A stretch of DNA of 35,227 nucleotides. Origin: a virus. Lineage: Duplodnaviria; Heunggongvirae; Uroviricota; Caudoviricetes. This document shows, piece by piece, positions 583 through 33,835 of this stretch. Position 1 is the stretch's first letter. Every line of letters begins with the position of its first letter. A model generated the notes under the pieces. The model made no database searches. It was not told the DNA's origin and saw only the letters and a program-made list of their open reading frames with translations. Position numbers and translations under genes: made by a program. The DNA lies in the IMG/VR virus record IMGVR_UViG_2778261451_000005; one strand, written 5' to 3'.

Positions 583-1596
583 TTACTCTACTGTGGACAC
601 TGTGTGGACACTCTCGGCTTCAGTACCACCTCTTAGCGGATTAAGAGAAATGGCGTCCTGAAGGTACTCTGGCGCAAAATGAGCGTAAACCATAGTTTGC
701 TCAATCCGCGTGTGACCTAGTATCCGTTGTAGCGTGATAATACTTCCTCCATTAATCATGAAATGAGTGGCAAAGCTGTGCCTTAGTGCATGTGTGGCTT
801 GCCCCGTTGGCAAATCCGGTTTTATTGCTTTCATTGTTCGTCTGAAGCGAGGGTAATCAGCATCAGGGAATAAAAAACCTCGTTTGTTATCCGCGATCAT
901 TTTGGCAACAGCCTCTGAGATCGGGACGGTGCGTGGTTTGTTTGTTTTCGTTTTAACAAACGTGACGCGGTTATGGATGATATTTTCTGCTTTCAAACGA
1001 GCTGCTTCTCCCCAACGTGCTCCTGTACTCAGGCAAAGAATCGCAATCTTTTTATTGTCGCCGTCAAGTGCTGCAAGCAGTAAGGCAATTTCTTCCTGTG
1101 TGAGATAGCCTGTTTCTGGTTTTTCCTCCTTAAGCCTCTTTGTCCCTCTGATAGGGTGCTCACCAAAGAATAACTCCGCTTCAATCAGGGCTGTAAACAT
1201 GCCGCTAATACATGTTAAATCACGATTGATACTCGAAGGTTTAATACCCTGACTTCTTCGGGTGGCGCAGTACTGGCTGATAAGGGATTTCGTGATTTGA
1301 AATGCGCATGGGTCATTCGTTATTTTTGTGAAGATTTCAATTTTTCCAAGATTAGATTTCCCATGCTCTTCGTGTTTACCCTTTAAATCCCACCAGATCT
1401 GTGTCAGTTCCGACAGACGTCGTTTGTCTGTTGGTTTTGATAGCCATTCTTTATTGTGGTGGTTGTACAACGTGTATTTTTCGAAAGCGACAGCTTCGCT
1501 TTTCTTATCAAACTTCCTACGGATGCGTTTTCCGTTACGTCCAGTAGGGCGGATGTCCACTTCATATCGACCATCATCGAGTTTTTTGATTGCCAT
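583..1596 (-). CDS. int: Tyrosine integrase, P2 Int
   Basis: 337 aa, ATG start with GGAGGG SD; sequence essentially identical to recalled P2 integrase; adjacent to attL. Confidence 0.95.
   Translation of the reverse strand: MAIKKLDDGRYEVDIRPTGRNGKRIRRKFDKKSEAVAFEKYTLYNHHNKEWLSKPTDKRRLSELTQIWWDLKGKHEEHGKSNLGKIEIFTKITNDPCAFQITKSLISQYCATRRSQGIKPSSINRDLTCISGMFTALIEAELFFGEHPIRGTKRLKEEKPETGYLTQEEIALLLAALDGDNKKIAILCLSTGARWGEAARLKAENIIHNRVTFVKTKTNKPRTVPISEAVAKMIADNKRGFLFPDADYPRFRRTMKAIKPDLPTGQATHALRHSFATHFMINGGSIITLQRILGHTRIEQTMVYAHFAPEYLQDAISLNPLRGGTEAESVHTVSTVE
592..611. promoter_or_regulatory. P' arm-type Int binding repeats (TGTGGACAC x2, 11-bp period)
   Basis: Two direct repeats of tgtggacac one helical turn apart; same TGTGGnCA motif as the P-arm repeats near attR. 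Confidence 0.55.
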
Positions 1597-2132: not shown

Positions 2133-2408
2133 ATGAATAGACAGCTTGTAAGCGTGACTGATGCCGTGCCTTATCAGGAGTTTGCAAAACTCATTGGTAA
2201 AACTCCAAGAGCTGTAAGGGGCATGATTGAGAAAGGGAAATTACCAGTTATTGAGATTACTGACCCTCAGTCAGTATCGGGGCGTGCTGGTGAATATTGG
2301 GTATACCTTCCGGCATGGAATAACGGACTAAAACTGGCTTATGAAAGCCGTCCTAAAGAGATTCGTGACGGCTGGTTGATGTGGTTAGGTCTCGGTGAAC
2401 CACGTTAA
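2133..2408 (+). CDS. cox: Cox (excisionase / transcriptional repressor of Pc)
   Basis: 91 aa; strong match to recalled P2 Cox (…YQEFAKLIGK…GRAGEYWVYLPAWNNGLKLAYESRPKEIRDGWLMWLGLGEPR). Confidence 0.93.
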   Translation: MNRQLVSVTDAVPYQEFAKLIGKTPRAVRGMIEKGKLPVIEITDPQSVSGRAGEYWVYLPAWNNGLKLAYESRPKEIRDGWLMWLGLGEPR

Positions 2409-3900: not shown

Positions 3901-4172
3901 GTATTCGTATTGAAATTGGCGAACGTTATGTCGTTACCAGTGACAGCTTTCAGTTTATTCTCCACGAGAAAAAGAGAGCTGAAAGCGGTAAAAATGCCGG
4001 TCAGGAATGGCTGGCGGTAGTTGGTTATTACCCGAAATTAAGCCAGCTCGTTTCCGGCCTGATGCATCACGATATTCTGACCGGAAGCGCAAAATCTTTT
4101 GCTGATTTAAACGCGCAGGTTGAGCAACTCAGCAAGCGTTGTTCAGAGGCTTTTGGCTCACATGGCCGTTAA
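3897..4172 (+). CDS. Early hypothetical protein (P2 orf83 position)
   Basis: 91 aa; ATG overlaps upstream stop; ends inside the start of A. Confidence 0.6.
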   Translation: MSIRIEIGERYVVTSDSFQFILHEKKRAESGKNAGQEWLAVVGYYPKLSQLVSGLMHHDILTGSAKSFADLNAQVEQLSKRCSEAFGSHGR

Positions 4173-6447
4173 AGCCTCCGGGCATTTTGTCCCTCCGTCA
4201 GCATTTGCCGCAGGCACCGGTAAGACGTTTACCGGTGCTTATGCATGGAACGCGCCACGCGAGGCCGTCGGGCGCGAAAGACCCCTTACACGTGACGAGA
4301 TGCGTCAGGTGCAAGGTGTTTTATCCACGATTAACCGCCTGCCTTACTTTTTGCGCTCGCTGTTTACTTCACGCTATGACTACATCCGGCGCAATAAAAG
4401 CCCGGTGCACGGGTTTTATTTCCTCACATCCACTTTTCAGCGTCGTTTATGGCCGCGCATTGAGCGTGTGAATCAGCGCCATGAAATGAACACCGACGCG
4501 TCGTTACTGTTTCTGGCAGAGCGTGAGCACTATGCGCGCCTGCCGGGAATGAATGACAAGGAGCTGAAAAAGTTTGCCGCCCGTATCTCATCGCAGCTTT
4601 TCATAATGTATGAGGAACTCTGCGATGCCTGGGTGGATGCGCATGGCGAGAAAGAATCGCTGTTTACGGATGAGGCGCAGGCGCATCTGTATGGTCATGT
4701 TGCTGGCGCTGCACGTGCTTTCAATATTTCCCCGCTCTACTGGAAAAAATACCGTAAAGGACAGATGACCACGAGGCAGGCATATTCTGCCATTGCCCGT
4801 CTGTTTAACGATGAGTGGTGGACTCATCAGCTTAAAGGCCAGCGTATGCGCTGGCATGAGGCGTTACTGATTGCTGTCGGGGAGGTCAATAAAGACCGTT
4901 CTCCTTATGCCAGTAAACATGCCATTCGTGATGTGCGTGCACGCCGCCAGGCAAATCTGGAATTTCTTAAATCGTGTGACCTTGAAAACAGGGAAACCGG
5001 CGAGCGCATCGACCTTATCAGTAAGGTGATGGGCAGTATTTCTAATCCTGAAATTCGCCGGATGGAGCTGATGAACACCATTGCCGGTATTGAGCGTTAC
5101 GCCGCAGCAGAGGGTGATGTGGGGATGTTTATCACGCTGACCGCGCCGTCAAAGTATCACCCGACACGTCAGGTCAGAAAAGGCGAAAGTAAAACCGTCC
5201 AGCTAAATCACGGCTGGAACGATGAGGCATTTAATCCAAAGGATGCGCAGCGTTATCTCTGCCGTATCTGGAGCCTGATGCGCACGGCATTCAAGGATAA
5301 TGATTTACAGGTCTACGGTTTGCGTGTCGTCGAGCCACACCACGACGGAACGCCGCACTGGCATATGATGCTTTTTTGTAATCCGCGCCAGCGTAACCAG
5401 ATTATCGAAATCATGCGTCGCTATGCGCTCAAAGAGGATGGCGACGAAAGAGGAGCCGCGCGAAACCGTTTTCAGGCAAAACACCTTAATCGGGGCGGTG
5501 CTGCGGGGTATATCGCGAAATACATCTCAAAAAACATCGACGGCTATGCACTGGATGGTCAGCTCGATAACGATACCGGCAGACCTCTGAAAGATACTGC
5601 CGCGGCTGTTACTGCATGGGCGTCAACGTGGCGCATCCCGCAATTTAAAACGGTTGGTCTGCCGACAATGGGGGCTTACCGTGAACTACGCAAATTGCCG
5701 CGCGGTGTCAGCATTGCTGATGAGTTTGACGAGCGCGTCGAGGCTGCACGCGCCGCCGCAGACAGTGGTGATTTTGCGTTGTATATCAGCGCGCAGGGTG
5801 GGGCAAATGTCCCGCGCGATTGTCAGACTGTCAGGGTCGCCCGTAGCCCGTCGGATGACGTTAACGAGTACGAGGAAGAGGTCGAGAGAGTGGTCGGCAT
5901 TTACGCGCCGCATCTCGGCGCGCGTCATATTCATATCACCAGAACGACGGACTGGCGCATTGTGCCGAAAGCTCCGGTCGTTGAGCCTTTGACTTTAAAA
6001 AGCGGCATCGCCGCGCCTCGGAGTCCTGTCAATAACTGTGGAAAGCTCACCGGTGGTGATACTTCGTTACCGGCTCCCACACCTTCTGAGCACGCCGCAG
6101 CAGTGCTAAATCTGGTTGATGACGGTGTTATCGAATGGAATGACCCGGAGGTTGTGAGGACGCTCAGGGGTGCATTAAAACACGGCCTGAAAACACCAAA
6201 TCGTCAGCAAAGAAATGGAAGCCCGTTAAAACCACATGAAATAGCACCGTCGGCCAGACTGACCCGGTCGGAACGATTGCAAATTACCCGTATCCGCGTT
6301 GACCTCGCTCAGAACGGTATCAGGCCGCAACGATGGGAGCTTGAGGCGCTGGCGCGTGGCGCGACAGTAAATTATGACGGGAAAAAATTCACGTATCCGG
6401 TCGCTGATGAGTGGTCGGGATTCTCAACAGTAATGGAGTGGACATGA
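4162..6447 (+). CDS. A: Rolling-circle replication initiator (nickase) A
   Basis: 761 aa from ATG at 4162 (ORF-track start 4120 is TTG); large conserved P2 A homologue by size and position. Confidence 0.88.
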   Translation: MAVKASGHFVPPSAFAAGTGKTFTGAYAWNAPREAVGRERPLTRDEMRQVQGVLSTINRLPYFLRSLFTSRYDYIRRNKSPVHGFYFLTSTFQRRLWPRIERVNQRHEMNTDASLLFLAEREHYARLPGMNDKELKKFAARISSQLFIMYEELCDAWVDAHGEKESLFTDEAQAHLYGHVAGAARAFNISPLYWKKYRKGQMTTRQAYSAIARLFNDEWWTHQLKGQRMRWHEALLIAVGEVNKDRSPYASKHAIRDVRARRQANLEFLKSCDLENRETGERIDLISKVMGSISNPEIRRMELMNTIAGIERYAAAEGDVGMFITLTAPSKYHPTRQVRKGESKTVQLNHGWNDEAFNPKDAQRYLCRIWSLMRTAFKDNDLQVYGLRVVEPHHDGTPHWHMMLFCNPRQRNQIIEIMRRYALKEDGDERGAARNRFQAKHLNRGGAAGYIAKYISKNIDGYALDGQLDNDTGRPLKDTAAAVTAWASTWRIPQFKTVGLPTMGAYRELRKLPRGVSIADEFDERVEAARAAADSGDFALYISAQGGANVPRDCQTVRVARSPSDDVNEYEEEVERVVGIYAPHLGARHIHITRTTDWRIVPKAPVVEPLTLKSGIAAPRSPVNNCGKLTGGDTSLPAPTPSEHAAAVLNLVDDGVIEWNDPEVVRTLRGALKHGLKTPNRQQRNGSPLKPHEIAPSARLTRSERLQITRIRVDLAQNGIRPQRWELEALARGATVNYDGKKFTYPVADEWSGFSTVMEWT

Positions 6448-6899
6448 TGGCAAAAATTCACGAGGTAAAGCTGCACGCAAAATATTTCGACCTTGTGCTG
6501 GAAGGAAAGAAACGCGCAGAGTTTCGGAAAAATGACCGTAATTATGAGCGCGGGGACACGTTGATTTTGCATGAATGGGGGCAGGGTGTGTATACGGGGC
6601 GAAAGGTTGAAGCCCGGATAACAGATGTTACTGACCTGTCAGACTGGCTGGAAGATTATGTCTTGCTAAGTATTGAGCTGCTTAATACAGGCGCATATGA
6701 GATTGTGAACTGGAAAGAACTTAGTGAGCGTGGTCTGTTATTCAGAATTAATCATGAAATTATGCATAAGCTCGGCCTTGCTGTTATGTATGAACCAGAG
6801 ACGGGAATGTCTGGCGGGGCAATGGTTGCCACGGATGGAGCATGGAACTATTCAGATGAACAGATGGAGCGTGCACAGCAAAACGGGTGGCTTGGATAA
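6444..6899 (+). CDS. Hypothetical protein with ASCH/PUA-like (DUF3850-type) N-terminal region (P2 orf91 position)
   Basis: ATG overlaps A stop (ATGA); N-terminus KIHEVKLHAKYFDLVLEGKKRAEFRKNDRNYERGDTLILHEW resembles the DUF3850/ASCH pattern (from memory). Confidence 0.6.
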   Translation: MMAKIHEVKLHAKYFDLVLEGKKRAEFRKNDRNYERGDTLILHEWGQGVYTGRKVEARITDVTDLSDWLEDYVLLSIELLNTGAYEIVNWKELSERGLLFRINHEIMHKLGLAVMYEPETGMSGGAMVATDGAWNYSDEQMERAQQNGWLG

Positions 6900-7105
6900 T
6901 GCACAGAATACCAGGCGAGATACCGCACCATAAAACTAAAAATATCAAGCTGATTGCTATTGTTCAGCGTTTACAGCGGATTATGGTCAACGAAAATCTG
7001 ACGCCCGATGAGCTAGTCGGGTGTGCCGAAATAGTCCGGGATAATTACGGGCGGTTTAACTATATCGGTCAGTCCAGAGTTGCGCCACCACCACGCAGAC
7101 GATAG
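6899..7105 (+). CDS. Small hypothetical ORF (68 aa)
   Basis: ATG overlaps upstream stop; no recognisable motif; could be non-coding. Confidence 0.3.
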   Translation: MHRIPGEIPHHKTKNIKLIAIVQRLQRIMVNENLTPDELVGCAEIVRDNYGRFNYIGQSRVAPPPRRR

Positions 7106-7107
7106 AT

Positions 7108-7170
7108 AACGCCGCCAGTCGTGAAACTTGTTTTCAGGGCTGGCGGCGTTGAACAACGAGTGAAGCGAGG
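7108..7170. repeat. Copy 1 of a ~55-bp repeated element preceding cargo gene 1; contains an 11-bp perfect-stem hairpin
   Basis: aacgccgccag…ctggcggcgtt hairpin followed by gaacaacgagtgaagcgagg; about 75-80% identical (by eye) to 8086..8143. Confidence 0.7.
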
Positions 7171-7334
7171 CGTTAGTTGACATTCATATTTTTACTGCGT
7201 TGGTGCTGTTTTTTGACGGTTGAAAGGAGTTATCTCGGAGAGCTAAAGCTAACAACTTACAAATATTCAAAAGTAAGCTTCCTGTTGCTAACATAAGGTC
7301 GATTTTTTATGTGGATGATGCAAAAAGGATAGCT

Positions 7335-8066
7335 ATGGATACTATAATCGCTTTTCTATCACTCGCTTTTTTTGTTGCTTTTTTCATCGGGTTAATCAAG
7401 CCATCACTGGTGCGAATGCCAAGCCGCAAACGTGCAAGTGCGGTTTATCTCGGAGGAGGTTTTGTATTGAGCATAATTGGTTCAATACTCTATCCAACAG
7501 AAAAAAGCCAGCCAGTTGCTAAAACTGAAACATCAACCGTTGTAGAACACCAAGTCCAAAAAACATTCGAATATGGTGAAAAAACACTCAAGGAATATCG
7601 GAGCGAGCCAAAGAAAACTCGACACGATATTGTGAATAGTTACATTGACTTTAAGAAAGTTCCAGTCACCGCATCAGATGCATTTTATGCCTGCATGAGT
7701 GAGTATACATTTACCAAAGATGATGAGTTGAAACTCGGTGATGTTCTTGGGTGGTGCTTTAATGATTATGAAAATGACCCGAGTTCACTAAATAATAAAA
7801 TCAATCTTGATACATTTCAGAGTAATTTTAGTGGTTGGGATGGTTCTTATCGTCCATTGGAAAAACTAATTAAAGATAATATGAACGATGATTCATCTTA
7901 TAAACATGTATCAACGGTATATCATTTAGTTTTGAATAAAGACCCGCACGCCATTGTGAAAACGACGTTTCGCGGCACTAATGCTTATGGTGGCATGGTC
8001 AAACAGACTGTAGCAGCGCGAGTTGACGTGCGAACGGGTGAGATCGATTCAATACTCGACAATTAA
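7335..8066 (+). CDS. Cargo gene 1: membrane-anchored protein of unknown function (two N-terminal TM helices plus ~190-aa domain)
   Basis: ATG at 7335 with AAGGAT SD (ORF-track start 7311 is GTG); hydrophobic segments TIIAFLSLAFFVAFFIGLI and AVYLGGGFVLSIIGSILY separated by a basic loop; AT-rich; occupies the P2 tin/old position. Confidence 0.7.
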   Translation: MDTIIAFLSLAFFVAFFIGLIKPSLVRMPSRKRASAVYLGGGFVLSIIGSILYPTEKSQPVAKTETSTVVEHQVQKTFEYGEKTLKEYRSEPKKTRHDIVNSYIDFKKVPVTASDAFYACMSEYTFTKDDELKLGDVLGWCFNDYENDPSSLNNKINLDTFQSNFSGWDGSYRPLEKLIKDNMNDDSSYKHVSTVYHLVLNKDPHAIVKTTFRGTNAYGGMVKQTVAARVDVRTGEIDSILDN

Positions 8067-8085
8067 ATAATATAGTGACAGCTCC

Positions 8086-8143
8086 GTCAGTGATGAAACT
8101 TGCTTTTAGTCTTGGCGGGGTTGAGCAATGAGTCTTGCAAGGT
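8086..8143. repeat. Copy 2 of the ~55-bp repeated element, directly upstream of cargo gene 2
   Basis: cagtgatgaaacttgcttttagtcttggcggggttgagcaatgagtcttgcaagg aligns with 7115..7170. Confidence 0.7.
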
Positions 8144-8149
8144 GTTAGC

Positions 8150-8806
8150 ATGCGTAGAATGGAAGCTGCTTGGACGTGGGGTATTCATATGAATTTAAAA
8201 ATTTTCGGCATAATTGTCCTTTCTGCTTTGATGTTCGTTTTAGGTTTTTTTCTCGGTGGTTTTAATTGGGAATGGGCTGATAAGAATTATGCAGGTGAGG
8301 TGGCGTTGTGGAGTATGTTAGGAGGGTGGTTATCCGCAATTGCAACTCTGTTTGCCGTGTTGGTTTCATTATATATGGCGTATCAAGCTACTCAGAATGA
8401 GATTGAAAAAATCAGGGTTACTCATGGAGTAAGTATGAGTGTCACTCATGACAATGAGTTAAGTTGTAATCTCATTATTCAGAACTTGAGAAATATGAAA
8501 GTGAATATTACTGGTGTTTTTTTGTCTCTAGGTAAATCATCAGGTAAGTACTCTTTGGATAAAGTAATTGACAATCGTAATATAACGCTTTCATATAAAG
8601 GTGAAACAGAAAAGGTACAATTTGTAATCCATTCTGGGTATATTTGGTGGTCAATGTATAAATTATTCGATATGGATAAGAACATAGGTTTTGAAAAGGG
8701 TAAGATCTTTATAACAACCAACCTCAATACATATGAATTTGATTTGCCAAAAGAATATTTAAGAGCTTTTGAGAAAGCTTATTCGGAGTATCAGACAAAA
8801 AAATAA
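8150..8806 (+). CDS. Cargo gene 2: membrane-anchored protein of unknown function (two N-terminal TM helices plus ~130-aa domain)
   Basis: ATG at 8150 preceded by AAGGTG (ORF-track start 8135 is TTG); hydrophobic segments IFGIIVLSALMFVLGFFLGGF and LWSMLGGWLSAIATLFAVLVSLYMAY; strongly AT-rich. Confidence 0.7.
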   Translation: MRRMEAAWTWGIHMNLKIFGIIVLSALMFVLGFFLGGFNWEWADKNYAGEVALWSMLGGWLSAIATLFAVLVSLYMAYQATQNEIEKIRVTHGVSMSVTHDNELSCNLIIQNLRNMKVNITGVFLSLGKSSGKYSLDKVIDNRNITLSYKGETEKVQFVIHSGYIWWSMYKLFDMDKNIGFEKGKIFITTNLNTYEFDLPKEYLRAFEKAYSEYQTKK

Positions 8807-8812
8807 TGAGCT

Positions 8813-8841
8813 GCATGCAAAAGGTGCATGTTTTTGCATGT
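8813..8841 (+). terminator. Hairpin downstream of cargo gene 2 (putative terminator)
   Basis: catgcaaaa / ttttgcatg stem with 9-nt loop just after the stop; U-tract is not canonical. Confidence 0.35.
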
Positions 8842-8935
8842 GCTAAGTTCACTGGTTTTGTGTATATCGCTTCAGATCTAGCGTGGTTCCGGGGAGGGCA
8901 TGCAACTGCATTAAAACCGCTCCATGAAGCGGGCG

Positions 8936-8954
8936 GGCGAGGCGGGGAAAGCAC
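8936..8954. other. cos site (19-nt cohesive end sequence)
   Basis: ggcgaggcggggaaagcac matches the recalled P2 cohesive-end sequence; located between the cargo locus and Q, as in P2. Confidence 0.8.
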
Positions 8955-9095
8955 TGCGCGCTGGCGGTGGTGCTGATTTTATTTTTTCAGCGTCTGAGCG
9001 CGTCGTGATGGCGTTTAGATTGTTCGCCGGGGCGTTGGTGTGTCTGCGGGATGTTTTGTGCGGTGGTGAGCGTGTGAGGGCGTGATGACAGGGTG

Positions 9096-9117
9096 TAAAA
9101 AAGCCGCCCGCAGGCGG
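9096..9117 (-). terminator. Rho-independent terminator after Q
   Basis: On the minus strand, gccgcctgcgggcggc hairpin followed by TTTTTT, immediately downstream of the Q stop. Confidence 0.75.
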
Positions 9118-9123
9118 CGATGT

Positions 9124-10158
9124 TCAGCCGTTGTCAGTGTCCAGTGAGTAGTTTTTAAAGTGGATGACCTCCTGACCGAGCCAGCCGTTTATCTCGCGGA
9201 TCCTGTCCTGTAACGGGATAAGCTCATTGCGGACAAAGACCTTTGCCACTTTCTCAATATCACCCAGCGACCCGACGTTCTCCGGCTTGCCGCCCATCAA
9301 CTGAAAGGGGATGCGGTGCGCGTCCAGCAGGTCAGCGGCGCTGGCTTTTTTGATATTAAAAAAATCGTCCTTCGTTGCCACTTCACTGAGCGGGATAATT
9401 TTAATGCCGTCAGCTTTCCCCTGCGGGGCATAGAGAAACAGGTTTTTAAAGTTGTTGCGGCCTTTCGACTTCACCATGTTTTCGCGGAGCATTTCGATAT
9501 CGTTGCGATCCTGCACGGCATCAGTGACGTACATGATATATCCGGCATGAGCGCCGTTTTCGTAATACTTGCGGCGGAACAGCGTGGCTGATTCATTCAG
9601 CCAGGCAGAGTTAAGGGCGCTGAGATATTCCGGCAGACCGTACAGCTCCTGATTAATATCCGGCTCCAGCAGGTGAAACACGGAGCCGGGCGCGAAAGGT
9701 GTCGGCTCATGGAAGGACGGCACCCACCAGTAAACATCCTCTTCCACGCCACGGCGGGTATATTTTGCCGGTGAGGTTTCCAGTCTGATGACCTTACCGG
9801 TGGTGCTGTAACGCTTTTCCAGAAACGCATTACCGAACACCAGAAAATCCAGCACAAAGCGGCTGAAATCCTGCTGGGAAAGCCACGGATGCGGGATAAA
9901 TGTCGAGGACAGAATATTACGTTTGACGTAAATCGGGGAGCTGTGATGCACGGCAGCACGCAGGCTTTTTGCCAGACCGGTAAAGCTGACCGGTGGCTCA
10001 TACCATCTGCCGTTACTGATGCACTCGACGTAATCCAGAATGTCACGGCGGTCGAGTACCGGTACCGGCTCACCAAAGGTGAATGCCTCCATTTTCGGGG
10101 CGCTGGCGGTCATTGTTTTTGCCGCAGGTTGCGGTGTTTTCCCTTTTTTCTTGCTCAT
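9124..10158 (-). CDS. Q: Portal protein Q
   Basis: 344 aa; near-identical to recalled P2 Q (MSKKKGKTPQPAAKTMTASAPKMEAFTFGEP…). Confidence 0.95.
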   Translation of the reverse strand: MSKKKGKTPQPAAKTMTASAPKMEAFTFGEPVPVLDRRDILDYVECISNGRWYEPPVSFTGLAKSLRAAVHHSSPIYVKRNILSSTFIPHPWLSQQDFSRFVLDFLVFGNAFLEKRYSTTGKVIRLETSPAKYTRRGVEEDVYWWVPSFHEPTPFAPGSVFHLLEPDINQELYGLPEYLSALNSAWLNESATLFRRKYYENGAHAGYIMYVTDAVQDRNDIEMLRENMVKSKGRNNFKNLFLYAPQGKADGIKIIPLSEVATKDDFFNIKKASAADLLDAHRIPFQLMGGKPENVGSLGDIEKVAKVFVRNELIPLQDRIREINGWLGQEVIHFKNYSLDTDNG

Positions 10159-29197: not shown

Positions 29198-31637
29198 CAA
29201 TGTAAAATTACAGGTATTGCTCAGGGCTGTTGACCAGGCATCCCGCCCGTTTAAATCCATCCGTACAGCGAGCAAGTCGCTGTCGGGGGATATCCGGGAC
29301 ACACAAAAATCACTGCGCGAGCTGAACGGTCACGCATCCCGTATTGAGGGATTTCGCAAGACCAGCGCACAGCTCGCCGTGACTGGTCATGCACTTGAGA
29401 AGGCACGGCTGGAAGCCGAAGCCCTTGCCACACAGTTTAAAAATACCGAACGTCCGACCCGTGCTCAGGCGAAAGTGCTGGAATCCGCAAAGCGAGCGGC
29501 GGAGGACTTACAGGCGAAATATAACCGCCTGACGGATTCCGTTAAACGCCAGCAGCGGGAACTGGCTGCTGTGGGAATTAATACCCGCAATCTTGCACAT
29601 GATGAGCAGGGGCTGAAAAACCGTATCAGTGAAACCACCGCGCAGCTTAACCGGCAGCGTGACGCGCTGGCGCGTGTCAGCGCGCAACAGGCAAAACTTA
29701 ACGCAGTCAAACAGCGTTATCAGGCCGGAAAGGAACTGGCCGGAAATATGGCCTCAGTGGGCGCTGCCGGTGTGGGGATTGCGGCGGCGGGAACGATGGC
29801 CGGAGTTAAGCTGCTGATGCCCGGTTATGAGTTTGCGCAGAAAAACTCAGAATTACAGGCTGTGCTCGGCGTGGCAAAAGACTCCGCCGAAATGGCCGCG
29901 CTCCGCAAACAGGCGCGCCAGCTCGGCGACAACACCGCCGCCTCGGCGGATGATGCAGCCGGTGCGCAGATTATCATTGCAAAAGCCGGTGGGGATGTTG
30001 ATGCCATTCAGGCGGCAACGCCGGTCACGCTGAATATGGCGCTGGCGAACCGTCGCACGATGGAAGAAAACGCCGCCCTGCTGATGGGGATGAAATCCGC
30101 CTTTCAGCTTTCAAACGATAAGGTCGCTCATATCGGGGATGTTCTCTCCATGACGATGAACAAAACCGCCGCCGATTTTGACGGCATGAGCGATGCGCTG
30201 ACCTATGCCGCACCTGTGGCAAAAAATGCCGGTGTCAGCATTGAAGAAACCGCCGCAATGGTCGGGGCGCTGCATGATGCAAAAATCACAGGCTCAATGG
30301 CGGGGACGGGAAGCCGTGCCGTGTTAAGCCGCCTGCAGGCACCGACGGGAAAAGCGTGGGATGCACTGAAAGAGCTTGGTGTGAAAACCTCAGACAGCAA
30401 GGGAAACACCCGACCAGTATTTACCATTCTGAAAGAAATGCAGGCCAGTTTTGAGAAAAACCGGCTCGGTACTGCCCAGCAGGCTGAATACATGAAAACT
30501 ATTTTCGGGGAAGAGGCCAGCTCAGCCGCCGCCGTGCTGATGACTGCCGCCTCAACCGGAAAGCTGGACAAACTGACCGCTGCGTTTAAAGCCTCAGACG
30601 GGAAGACCGCCGAGCTGGTAAATATCATGCAGGACAACCTCGGCGGTGACTTTAAGGAGTTTCAGTCCGCTTATGAGGCGGTGGGGACTGACCTGTTTGA
30701 CCAGCAGGAAGGCGCACTGCGTAATCTCACGCAGACAGCCACAAAGTATGTGCTAAAACTCGACGGCTGGATCCAGAAAAACAAATCACTGGCGTCAACC
30801 ACCGGCCTCATTGCCGGTGGCGCACTGGCGCTGACTGGCATCATCGGTGCCATTGGTCTTGTAGCCTGGCCGGTTATCACCGGCATCAATGCCATTATCG
30901 CGGCAGCAGGCGCAATGGGGGCAATCTTCACGACGGTTGGCAGTGCTGTTATGACGGCCATCGGGGCGATTAGCTGGCCGGTTGTGGCCGTGGTGGCCGC
31001 CATTGTCGCCGGGGCGTTGCTTATCCGTAAATACTGGGAGCCTGTCAGCGCATTCTTTGGCGGTGTGGTGGAAGGGCTGAAAGCGGCATTTGCGCCGGTG
31101 GGGGAACTGTTCATGCCACTTAAGCCGGTGTTTGACTGGCTGGGCGAAAAGTTACAGGCCGCGTGGCAGTGGTTTAAAAACCTGATTGCCCCGGTCAAAG
31201 CCACCCAGGACACCCTGAACCGTTGCCGTGACACGGGTGTCATGTTCGGGCAGGCACTGGCTGACGCGCTGATGCTGCCGCTTAATGCGTTCAACAAACT
31301 GCGCAGCGGTATTGCCTGGGTACTGGAAAAGCTCGGGGTCATCAACAAAGAGTCAGACACACTTGACCAGACCGCCGCCAGAACTCATGCCGCCACGTAT
31401 GGCACCGGTGGTTATATTCCGGCGACCAGCTCTTATGCAGGCTATCAGGCTTATCAGCCAGTCACGGCACTGGCTGGCCGCTCTTATGTGGACCAGAGTA
31501 AAAACGAATATCACATCAGCCTGACGGGTGGTACTGCGCCGGGGACACAGCTTGACCGCCAGTTACAGGATGCGCTCGAAAAATACGAGCGGGATAAACG
31601 TGCGCGTGCCCGTGCCAGCATGATGCATGACGGTTAA
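29190..31637 (+). CDS. T: Tail tape measure protein T
   Basis: 815 aa; coiled-coil N-terminus and Gly/Ala-rich hydrophobic region. Confidence 0.93.
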   Translation: MSNNVKLQVLLRAVDQASRPFKSIRTASKSLSGDIRDTQKSLRELNGHASRIEGFRKTSAQLAVTGHALEKARLEAEALATQFKNTERPTRAQAKVLESAKRAAEDLQAKYNRLTDSVKRQQRELAAVGINTRNLAHDEQGLKNRISETTAQLNRQRDALARVSAQQAKLNAVKQRYQAGKELAGNMASVGAAGVGIAAAGTMAGVKLLMPGYEFAQKNSELQAVLGVAKDSAEMAALRKQARQLGDNTAASADDAAGAQIIIAKAGGDVDAIQAATPVTLNMALANRRTMEENAALLMGMKSAFQLSNDKVAHIGDVLSMTMNKTAADFDGMSDALTYAAPVAKNAGVSIEETAAMVGALHDAKITGSMAGTGSRAVLSRLQAPTGKAWDALKELGVKTSDSKGNTRPVFTILKEMQASFEKNRLGTAQQAEYMKTIFGEEASSAAAVLMTAASTGKLDKLTAAFKASDGKTAELVNIMQDNLGGDFKEFQSAYEAVGTDLFDQQEGALRNLTQTATKYVLKLDGWIQKNKSLASTTGLIAGGALALTGIIGAIGLVAWPVITGINAIIAAAGAMGAIFTTVGSAVMTAIGAISWPVVAVVAAIVAGALLIRKYWEPVSAFFGGVVEGLKAAFAPVGELFMPLKPVFDWLGEKLQAAWQWFKNLIAPVKATQDTLNRCRDTGVMFGQALADALMLPLNAFNKLRSGIAWVLEKLGVINKESDTLDQTAARTHAATYGTGGYIPATSSYAGYQAYQPVTALAGRSYVDQSKNEYHISLTGGTAPGTQLDRQLQDALEKYERDKRARARASMMHDG

Positions 31638-33694: not shown

Positions 33695-33721
33695 AAAAAA
33701 TAAGCCCGTGTAAGGGAGATT
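33695..33721. repeat. attR core (27 bp), identical to 477..503
   Basis: Exact direct repeat; embedded in the cyaR terminator. Confidence 0.9.
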
Positions 33722-33781
33722 ACACAGGCTAAGGAGGTGGTTCCTGGTACAGCTAGCATTTTATGGGTTATGTTTTTCAGC
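33695..33781 (-). ncRNA. cyaR: CyaR (RyeE) Hfq-dependent small RNA
   Basis: Minus strand reads GCTGAAAAACATAACCCATAAAATGCTAGCTGTACCAGGAACCACCTCCTTAGCCTGTGTAATCTCCCTTACACGGGCTTATTTTTT, matching the recalled E. coli CyaR sequence including the terminator. Confidence 0.85.
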
Positions 33782-33835
33782 GAAACGGATGATAACCTTA
33801 ATAAATGCAGCTGTATGTGATCGGTTTCTAAGAAT
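33782..33835 (-). promoter_or_regulatory. cyaR promoter with class II CRP-like site
   Basis: -10 TATCAT at 33789..33794 (minus strand); TGTGA-N6-TCTAA at 33816..33831, centred about 42 bp upstream of the inferred start; CyaR is known to be CRP-activated. Confidence 0.45.

Follow-up and report, generated by a model that had tools for sequence, protein, structure and literature searches.

The stretch of DNA considered here comprises 35,227 nucleotides (nt) of IMG/VR virus record IMGVR_UViG_2778261451_000005 (Caudoviricetes) and is referred to in its full length as the window. The window is a P2-like prophage and, between the replication gene A and the cohesive-end site cos, it carries two copies of a structured element of about 75 nt that we call E and propose as a candidate replication signal. 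The original prediction, made from the sequence alone, had described two related copies of a shorter repeat at this place, and these are borne out with slightly wider limits. An ungapped, same-strand alignment of 7105-7176 with 8077-8148 has 53 of 72 positions identical (74%), whereas the best 72-nt matches in 30 shuffles of the surrounding 3.5 kb reach 36-39. Copy numbers and limits were taken from a covariance model of the element, R1, which places copy 1 at 7102-7176 (+) with 89.7 bits (E-value 6e-25) and copy 2 at 8074-8148 (+) with 62.1 bits, and which finds no third copy in the window.

Copy 1 is canonical. Its main hairpin (hairpin I, 7108-7150) has 19 pairs and an ACTTG loop, and the 11-bp perfect stem that had been noted earlier (AACGCCGCCAG/CTGGCGGCGTT) is the base of this larger structure. 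The predicted folding energy is −36.4 kcal/mol as RNA (z-score −4.9) and −22.7 kcal/mol as DNA (z-score −6.75). The tail that follows, which corresponds to a second hairpin (hairpin II, 7148-7176, +), reads GTTGAACAACGAG-TGAA-GCGAGGCGTTAG. Copy 1 is 100% identical to the element of Escherichia phage S164 and 93-95% identical to those of Wphi and other P2-like phages. Copy 2 is degraded: its stem is held only by G-T (or G-U) pairs on the + strand, its DNA fold of −6 kcal/mol (z-score +0.8) is no more stable than that of shuffled sequence, and its tail carries four transitions at positions that are otherwise invariant (GAGCAATGAG, GCAAGGTGTTAG). As predicted, each copy lies behind the stop codon of a preceding gene and ahead of a cargo gene. 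The hairpin of copy 1 begins 2 nt past the TAG of the open reading frame (ORF) at 6887-7105, and the aligned hairpin base of copy 2 (8080) begins 13 nt past the TAA of the ORF at 7335-8066.

Neither copy appears to be part of a gene. Two minus-strand ORFs (7013-7183 and 7999-8151) have their ATG inside the respective copy of E, and a 'hypothetical protein' is annotated at this spot in many phage and E. coli records. A coding function was rejected, as the minus-strand products are not conserved between the copies and the + frames hold stop codons; these annotations are probably over-annotation of the hairpin. No sigma-70-like promoter was matched at either copy. The complements of the two tail blocks are no commoner elsewhere in the window than in shuffled sequence, and E has no partner sequence elsewhere in the phage.

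Across the family, E is composed of an upstream stop codon, a spacer that is usually 2 nt long, hairpin I and a nearly invariant tail with the consensus GTTGAACAACGAG-N3-5-GCGAGGCGTTAG. Hairpin I retains its 19 pairs while varying in sequence; its base is AAC...GTT and its loop approximates ACTYG. Conservation ends sharply at the GTTAG that closes the tail, beyond which the sequences diverge completely, and the tail is under strong purifying selection. Covariation was assessed on an alignment of 45 diverse copies, in which 89.9% of the cells of hairpin I are paired compared with at most 50% when the partner is slid, and 14 of the 19 pairs show double changes. The alignment has a covariation score of 0.416, compared with 0.234 for shuffled alignments, and none of 500 shuffles reaches the observed value. 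RNAalifold recovers the same helix unaided and folds the tail as a small irregular hairpin, with the variable N3-5 segment forming the loop. Read on the + strand, the pair cells include 100 G-T and 15 A-C combinations, and because of this excess the + strand is taken to be the folding strand. The fourth stem pair is unpaired in 30 of the 45 copies, mostly as a G-G mismatch. Pairing of a 5ˊ-terminal AACGCC with a 3ˊ-terminal GGCGTT into an outer helix was also considered and rejected, as that helix is broken in variants that have AACCCC or AAGCCC. Rfam 15 yields no match to E at the gathering score and only chance-level matches (E-value ≥0.86) across 6850-9150.

A sequence-profile (nhmmer) search gave 135 copies of E in 120 loci, 105 with one copy and 15 with two; the latter count includes both the window and the identical locus L121, leaving 14 distinct two-copy loci. 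No locus with more than two copies was found among these loci or in a scan of complete E. coli genomes, where E occurs in 515 of 5,426 genomes and at two places per genome at most. Pattern scans covering IMG/VR and one genome per species provided many diverse copies, with the exact tail present in 34 species, all of them Enterobacterales. By blastn, copy 1 matches 78 phage records, including Wphi, 186, PSP3 and P2-like phages of Yersinia, Klebsiella, Salmonella and Erwinia. R1 counts two copies in the window, one in 186 and none in canonical P2 (NC_001895). E has no annotation of its own in the records that we inspected (186, P2, Wphi, P2-EC58/67 and the plasmids). Two full copies reside on plasmids. 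In Providencia pPrY2001 (NC_022589, 4978-5055; locus L128), five 22-bp iterons and a rep gene follow E at a distance of 125 bp. On a Klebsiella Mob/RepL plasmid of 3.7 kb (NZ_LR890238, 2431-2514; locus L126), E is situated in the gap between mob and repL and has a hairpin of unrelated sequence with a stem base like that of phiX174 (AACGCCGAA...TTGAGGGGTT).

The genomic setting of E is highly regular. At nearly every locus there are P2-type A, Q or P genes, and when the gene A protein was used as a tblastn probe, E and gene A were found in the same orientation in 99 of 99 cases. Measured from the end of gene A, E lies 211-2,902 nt further on; to the end of gene Q there remain 340-3,682 nt, and E always precedes cos and gene Q. 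In the window, gene A contains a P2-type ori motif, GCGCCTCGGAGTCCTGTCAATAAC (6013-6036, +), that is found unchanged in P2 (NC_001895) around the annotated 'nick site at ori' and marks the nick site of gpA, the gene A product. This motif shares the pattern G/A-N8-9-AATAAC with the viral-strand origin of phiX174. It shares its strand with E, and the distance downstream from the motif to E is about 1,090 nt for copy 1 and about 2,060 nt for copy 2.

The 131 copies with both flanks available have 19 families of upstream neighbours, 38 families of downstream neighbours and 52 combinations of the two. Three upstream families dominate, namely a small ORF (phrog_11386), a DinI/Tum-like gene and a 186-orf97-like gene. 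This imbalance indicates that E is the last conserved sequence before the variable region, and E anchors the left edge of the cargo hotspot. The proposal of a conserved module boundary is therefore well supported by the flank diversity together with the abrupt end at GTTAG, and a search for E at the hotspot boundaries of other P2-like prophages, which had been suggested as a check, locates nearly all copies between A and cos. The association with cargo genes does not generalize in the same way, as the family-wide fixed relation is to the upstream stop codon and not to the downstream gene. Among 102 strong copies, 94 start 2-27 nt past a same-strand stop codon, including 58 at exactly 2 nt. In the no-cargo state found in 186 and its relatives, a separate intrinsic terminator stands 20-45 nt past E and is followed by cos. 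At locus L125, E scores a full 84 bits between two neighbouring genes on the opposite strand.

The downstream gene sometimes makes use of the tail. In at least three unrelated gene families an ATG is found 1-3 nt past GTTAG, and the GAGG of the tail serves as the Shine-Dalgarno sequence. These include the second cargo gene of the window, a family of 85-93-amino-acid (aa) proteins and a UmuD-like protein. About 80% of the copies have no nearby start codon.

The two-copy loci are tandem gene-E units. Their commonest arrangement is DinI-E'-small ORF-E, where E' is the weaker copy, with a spacing of 405 nt. The window has the order small ORF-E-orf97-E, and loci L050 and L073 have the reverse, orf97-E'-small ORF-E. 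In each of the 14 distinct loci, one copy is canonical (89-93 bits) and one is weaker (34-77 bits), and in every case the canonical copy follows the small ORF. Copy 2 of the window follows an orf97 homologue, just as the single copy of 186 follows orf97. Judging from these arrangements, copy 2 probably arrived with a 186-type orf97 module and is now redundant and decaying. The original view that the two cargo genes moved as separate modules is in agreement with the two gene orders and with the shared association of copy 2 and orf97 in the window and in 186.

The idea that E acts in single-strand initiation was raised because of its strand asymmetry, its position past a rolling-circle origin and its two occurrences in plasmid replication regions. 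R1, which was built without any microvirus sequence, was run over the genomes of phiX174 and G4. Its only significant match in the two genomes is at phiX174 2302-2371 (+), with 30.1 bits and an E-value of about 9e-8 on a scale that is roughly calibrated. A sequence-only hidden Markov model (nhmmer) also ranks this site first, with an E-value of 1.5e-4. The Klebsiella plasmid copy matches phiX174 at 24 of 26 aligned positions over GAGGGGTTGA.CA..AGCGAAGCG.GG. The hairpin between genes F and G of phiX174 is the terminator T_F (5ˊ stem at 2308-2326), overlaps the complementary-strand origin and binds PriA, and saturation mutagenesis has revealed a shorter, mutation-sensitive hairpin at 2353-2373 (10.64898/2026.07.25.740675, 2026). 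The latter corresponds to the tail of E.

The resemblance between E and this primosome assembly site (PAS; the concept is reviewed in PMC5778457) extends to several features. In each, a short second hairpin comes after a long imperfect one, and the two elements fold alike. They have in common AACGCC at the stem base, (G)GGGTTGA(A/C)C, AGCGAAGCG and GCG(G/T)TAG. When read base by base, the phiX174 stem also has a G-G mismatch at its fourth pair (AACG../..GGTT). Like the phiX174 site, E occupies an intergenic gap, and it would likewise be on the strand that an HUH Rep protein nicks. However, the stem sequences are unrelated except at the base, and the tail of E is 6 nt longer and far more invariant than that of phiX174. 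E also differs from T_F in that it lacks a T-run and is not a terminator. Unlike phiX174, the replicon of E is a 30-35 kb double-stranded temperate phage with a helicase-loader gene (B).

Other single-strand initiation sites provide weaker parallels. On ColE1 (NC_001371; locus L167), R1 gives a weak match between rop and ori at 1272-1347 (+), with 9.3 bits and an E-value of 0.08, that covers GCAGTCGAACGACCGAGCGTAGCGAGTCAG...GAGCGAGGAAGCGGAAAAGCG. We take the matched stretch to be ssiA, also known as the factor Y site. The GCAGTCGAACGACCGAGCGTAGCGAGTCAG at ColE1 1310-1347 resembles the GGGGTTGAACAACGAGCGAAGCGAGGCGTTAG of E, although the ColE1 site has no equivalent of the long hairpin. ssiA of ColE1 and pBR322 (n'-pas, the factor Y effector site) embodies the same concept that we propose for E, and ColE1 has been described as exposing a PriA-dependent site on the strand just downstream of its origin (PMC3167613). 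The G4-type sites that need only primase are likewise hairpin signals for complementary-strand priming on SSB-coated DNA, but the tail of E lacks their invariant CTG start triplet. Assignment of E to this type was rejected, as R1 finds no match in G4.

Together, these data make it probable that E is a cis-acting replication signal of the phiX174 type, that is, a single-strand initiation site at which a primosome is assembled. The sequence family, its structure and folding strand, its fixed direction with respect to gene A and ori, its resemblance to the phiX174 site and the diversity of its flanks are direct observations, from which we infer PriA binding, priming and the recombination history of E. 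A defined PAS is matched both by R1 and by the profile search, and a stable hairpin selected on the + strand is evident from the 14 covarying pairs, the 100:15 pair ratio and the DNA z-score of −6.75. The original prediction overlooked that the tail is under strong selection, that the covariation is strand-specific and that a PriA site is matched, and these features suggest a function in replication.

In the proposed mechanism, gpA would nick the + strand at ori within gene A, and extension of the 3ˊ end would displace the + strand rightwards. The displaced, SSB-coated strand would expose E about 1.1 kb past the nick, and E would then fold into its long imperfect hairpin and short irregular second hairpin and thereby escape the SSB coat. 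The host PriA protein would recognize this structure and, with PriB and DnaT, load DnaB/DnaC and then primase, such that lagging-strand synthesis starts at E. Phage 186 reportedly needs dnaA and dnaC (Hooper and Egan, 1981). A role of E in priming accounts for the fixed orientation to gene A, for folding on one strand only and for an invariant tail as the recognition feature. It also accounts for the proximity to plasmid origins, the full score at L125 and the decay of surplus copies. E would be the last conserved sequence before cos because it is a selected backbone element placed just before a non-essential region. The 75 invariant or structured bases might additionally serve as the left homology anchor when cargo is exchanged between phages, and modules that bring their own E could stack, which would give rise to the second copy in the window. 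The close apposition of E to its flanking genes and the use of the GAGG of the tail as a Shine-Dalgarno sequence might simply be opportunistic in a tight intergenic space.

Several points weigh against this proposal. That gpA nicks the + strand is presumed from the orientation of the motif and from general background on P2, and the R1 E-values are, as stated, roughly calibrated. Canonical P2 replicates well without E, and E must therefore be dispensable, at least in phages whose B protein takes care of lagging-strand loading (a function taken as annotated in the P2 record). Because the phiX174 homologue is also the terminator T_F, homology to it does not separate a role in DNA from one in RNA, and E may have a role at the RNA level alongside its role in DNA. 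The position of most copies flush with a same-strand stop codon and the use of the tail in ribosome binding by genes of at least three unrelated families both fit an RNA element, and G-U pairing is also expected of an RNA. Finally, the tail is more invariant in sequence than is required by the structure-specific binding of PriA described in textbooks.

Some of these same points form the case for E acting in the sense transcript, as a stem-loop in a 3ˊ untranslated or intercistronic region that stabilizes or processes the upstream message, or as a weak attenuator similar to T_F, and in addition handing a ready-made Shine-Dalgarno sequence to whichever gene follows. The spacing of 94 of 102 strong copies behind a stop codon, the start codons 1-3 nt past GTTAG in at least three families, the G-U pairs on the transcribed strand and the double duty of the phiX174 counterpart as a terminator are all compatible with such an element, as is the location of the 186 copy inside the p95 transcript and upstream of its terminator t95b. 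However, a Shine-Dalgarno sequence takes up 4 nt and not 29 invariant nt, about four-fifths of the copies have no start codon nearby, and no Rfam family is matched. E also stands beside plasmid iterons, behind a separate terminator and, in L125, between opposite-strand genes. A T-run is absent after hairpin I and follows E in only 20 of 133 copies (5 of the 38 downstream families). We consider an RNA element as the explanation of E rather unlikely. The suggestion of a shared intrinsic terminator does not survive the same evidence. Like E, intrinsic terminators such as t95b are GC-rich hairpins past a stop codon, but hairpin I is followed by GAACAACGAG and by nothing T-rich, and a consensus terminator scan detects none at either copy in the window. 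In 186, the annotated transcript end is not at E (30344-30412) but at t95b (30436-30463), a separate hairpin with its own T-run that lies 24 nt further downstream.

The sharp edges of conservation on both sides, the gene-E units in both orders, the two-copy arrays and the imperfect hairpin with its conserved mismatch evoke a different possibility, namely that E is a folded single-strand analogue of the integron attC site that a recombinase would use for the insertion and excision of gene-E cassettes. Both kinds of element are imperfect one-strand hairpins at the 3ˊ ends of modules whose order varies in arrays, and the final GTTAG of E recalls the GTTRRRY core of attC. Yet attC-like sites would be retained at every cassette and be served by a dedicated recombinase. 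No locus has more than two copies of E and the second copy always decays, whereas arrayed recombination sites would be maintained. The upstream partners come from only three main gene families. The conserved part of E is its single-stranded tail rather than paired core sites, and the integron integrase is not involved; the only candidate recombinase seen to co-occur is the ordinary phage integrase, from observation of the loci and not from a dedicated search for recombinase genes. Canonical P2 lacks the site, and homologous recombination over 75 bp explains the junctions equally well. A dedicated recombination site is thus very unlikely, and what remains of the recombination joint that had been envisaged for cassette swapping is a by-product of a short invariant patch of homology. 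oriT and Rep sites likewise place a conserved single-stranded tail after a hairpin, and in the Klebsiella plasmid E occupies the position upstream of the mob genes where an oriT would be expected, which could imply that E is a substrate for an HUH nuclease or relaxase, cut by gpA or a plasmid relaxase in its single-stranded region and serving as a secondary origin or an oriT mimic. This is extremely improbable, given that the strands of E align with the nick regions of the P2 and 186 origins no better than do shuffled sequences (p 0.23-0.96) and that the best-supported relative of E is a PriA site and not a nick site.

Primosome assembly sites are textbook biology, and E in P2-like phages is a tidy extension of it rather than a new kind of system. 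Within the searchable literature, no paper was found that links P2-like phages (P2, 186) with the primosome or PriA. A published discussion of the A-to-cos hotspot mentions no conserved boundary element (PMC9122126), and, to judge from a review that cites it, the study by Nilsson et al. (2004) deals with the Z/fun locus. Searching the literature with the tail motifs returned only unrelated primer listings, and the small RNA and transcriptome literature on P2-like prophages (BTP5) describes nothing at E.

Anti-phage systems have a major reservoir in P2-like prophages, where the A-to-cos hotspot is used as a tool for their discovery. The 75-nt covariance model gives this hotspot a precise, searchable left border that ends exactly at GTTAG, and the border also gains a testable function. 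If E is a PriA site, many P2- and 186-like phages would use the host restart primosome for their lagging strand, as do phiX174 and ColE1, and a missing cis element would be added to the classic model of rolling-circle replication. It would also explain why insertions are tolerated only on the downstream side, and why many 'hypothetical protein' calls over the hairpin are over-annotation. It is distinctly unlikely, in our estimation, that the link to cargo goes deeper, such that the priming hairpin is the reason for the position of the defence hotspot, that primosome assembly, fork restart or template switching at E drives cassette stacking and cargo turnover, or that the PriA-bound single-stranded hairpin could be sensed by hairpin- or PriA-dependent defences. 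The last of these suggestions is by analogy with DdmABC/Lamassu of Vibrio cholerae, where sensing depends on hairpins and PriA (10.1101/2022.11.18.517080).

The remaining features of the window are typical of the A-to-cos region. Gene A (4120-6447, +) was identified from the ORF list and is homologous to the annotated gpA proteins of P2 and Wphi. Near its start is a weak R1 match of about 12 bits (4205-4270, +) that recurs in P2, Wphi and locus L124, and this is probably a chance match that is conserved along with gene A. Gene A is followed by an orf91-like gene with ASCH/DUF3850 and DUF7415 domains (6447-6899, +; PF12961, 5e-18; PF24187, 2.5e-13; PF04266, 4e-11; phrog_1812) and by the small conserved ORF (6887-7105, +; phrog_11386, 6e-38), which is the commonest upstream partner of E (cluster U74, n=44).

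The first cargo gene (7335-8066, +) encodes a full-length homologue of phage 186 Orf97 (phrog_3403, 7e-144), and the DNA for its C terminus and the following copy 2 are collinear with orf97 and its element in 186. The 186 record states that plasmid-expressed Orf97 blocks infection by 186. Cargo 1 is accordingly better described as a candidate superinfection-exclusion gene, on the basis of this homology, than as an unknown cargo. The second cargo gene (8150-8806, +) encodes a 218-aa protein that covers the whole profile of phrog_16957 (6e-100) and has a short MRRMEAAWTWGIH leader followed by a hydrophobic N-terminal segment; no match was found for it in Pfam or PADLOC. Its ATG is 1 nt past the GTTAG of copy 2, the AAGG of which is its Shine-Dalgarno sequence, and the start codon is fused to the tail of E at each locus that carries this gene (L030, L031 and L114). 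A terminator-like hairpin with a T-run follows (8813-8841, +; consensus scan only). The right edge of the hotspot is the cos sequence GGCGAGGCGGGGAAAGCAC (8936-8954), which is identical to the annotated cosR of P2 (NC_001895), and from 9124 onwards the minus strand carries the portal and terminase genes.

A few minor observations concern other cargo loci and the end of the prophage. The family of 85-93-aa proteins (M.G.D.NYQVVYRGE...GGWVFFQRPKE.GGG.W.G) starts 2-3 nt past E behind a DinI-like gene in prophages of Pantoea, Citrobacter, Raoultella and Phytobacter (L130, L131, L142, L145, L147, L148 and L156). In L143 and L152, the slot held elsewhere by this protein is taken by a 107-aa UmuD-like protein (MGFPSPAQDYVE...). 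In P2-EC67 (AM157369, 1100-1405; L163), an inserted ORF226 has replaced the 5ˊ part of the small ORF upstream of E, and cargo can therefore also enter upstream of the small ORF-E unit. Lastly, a match to the small RNA CyaR/RyeE at 33698-33783 (−), with 100.7 bits and the full model matched, marks the host flank at the end of the prophage.

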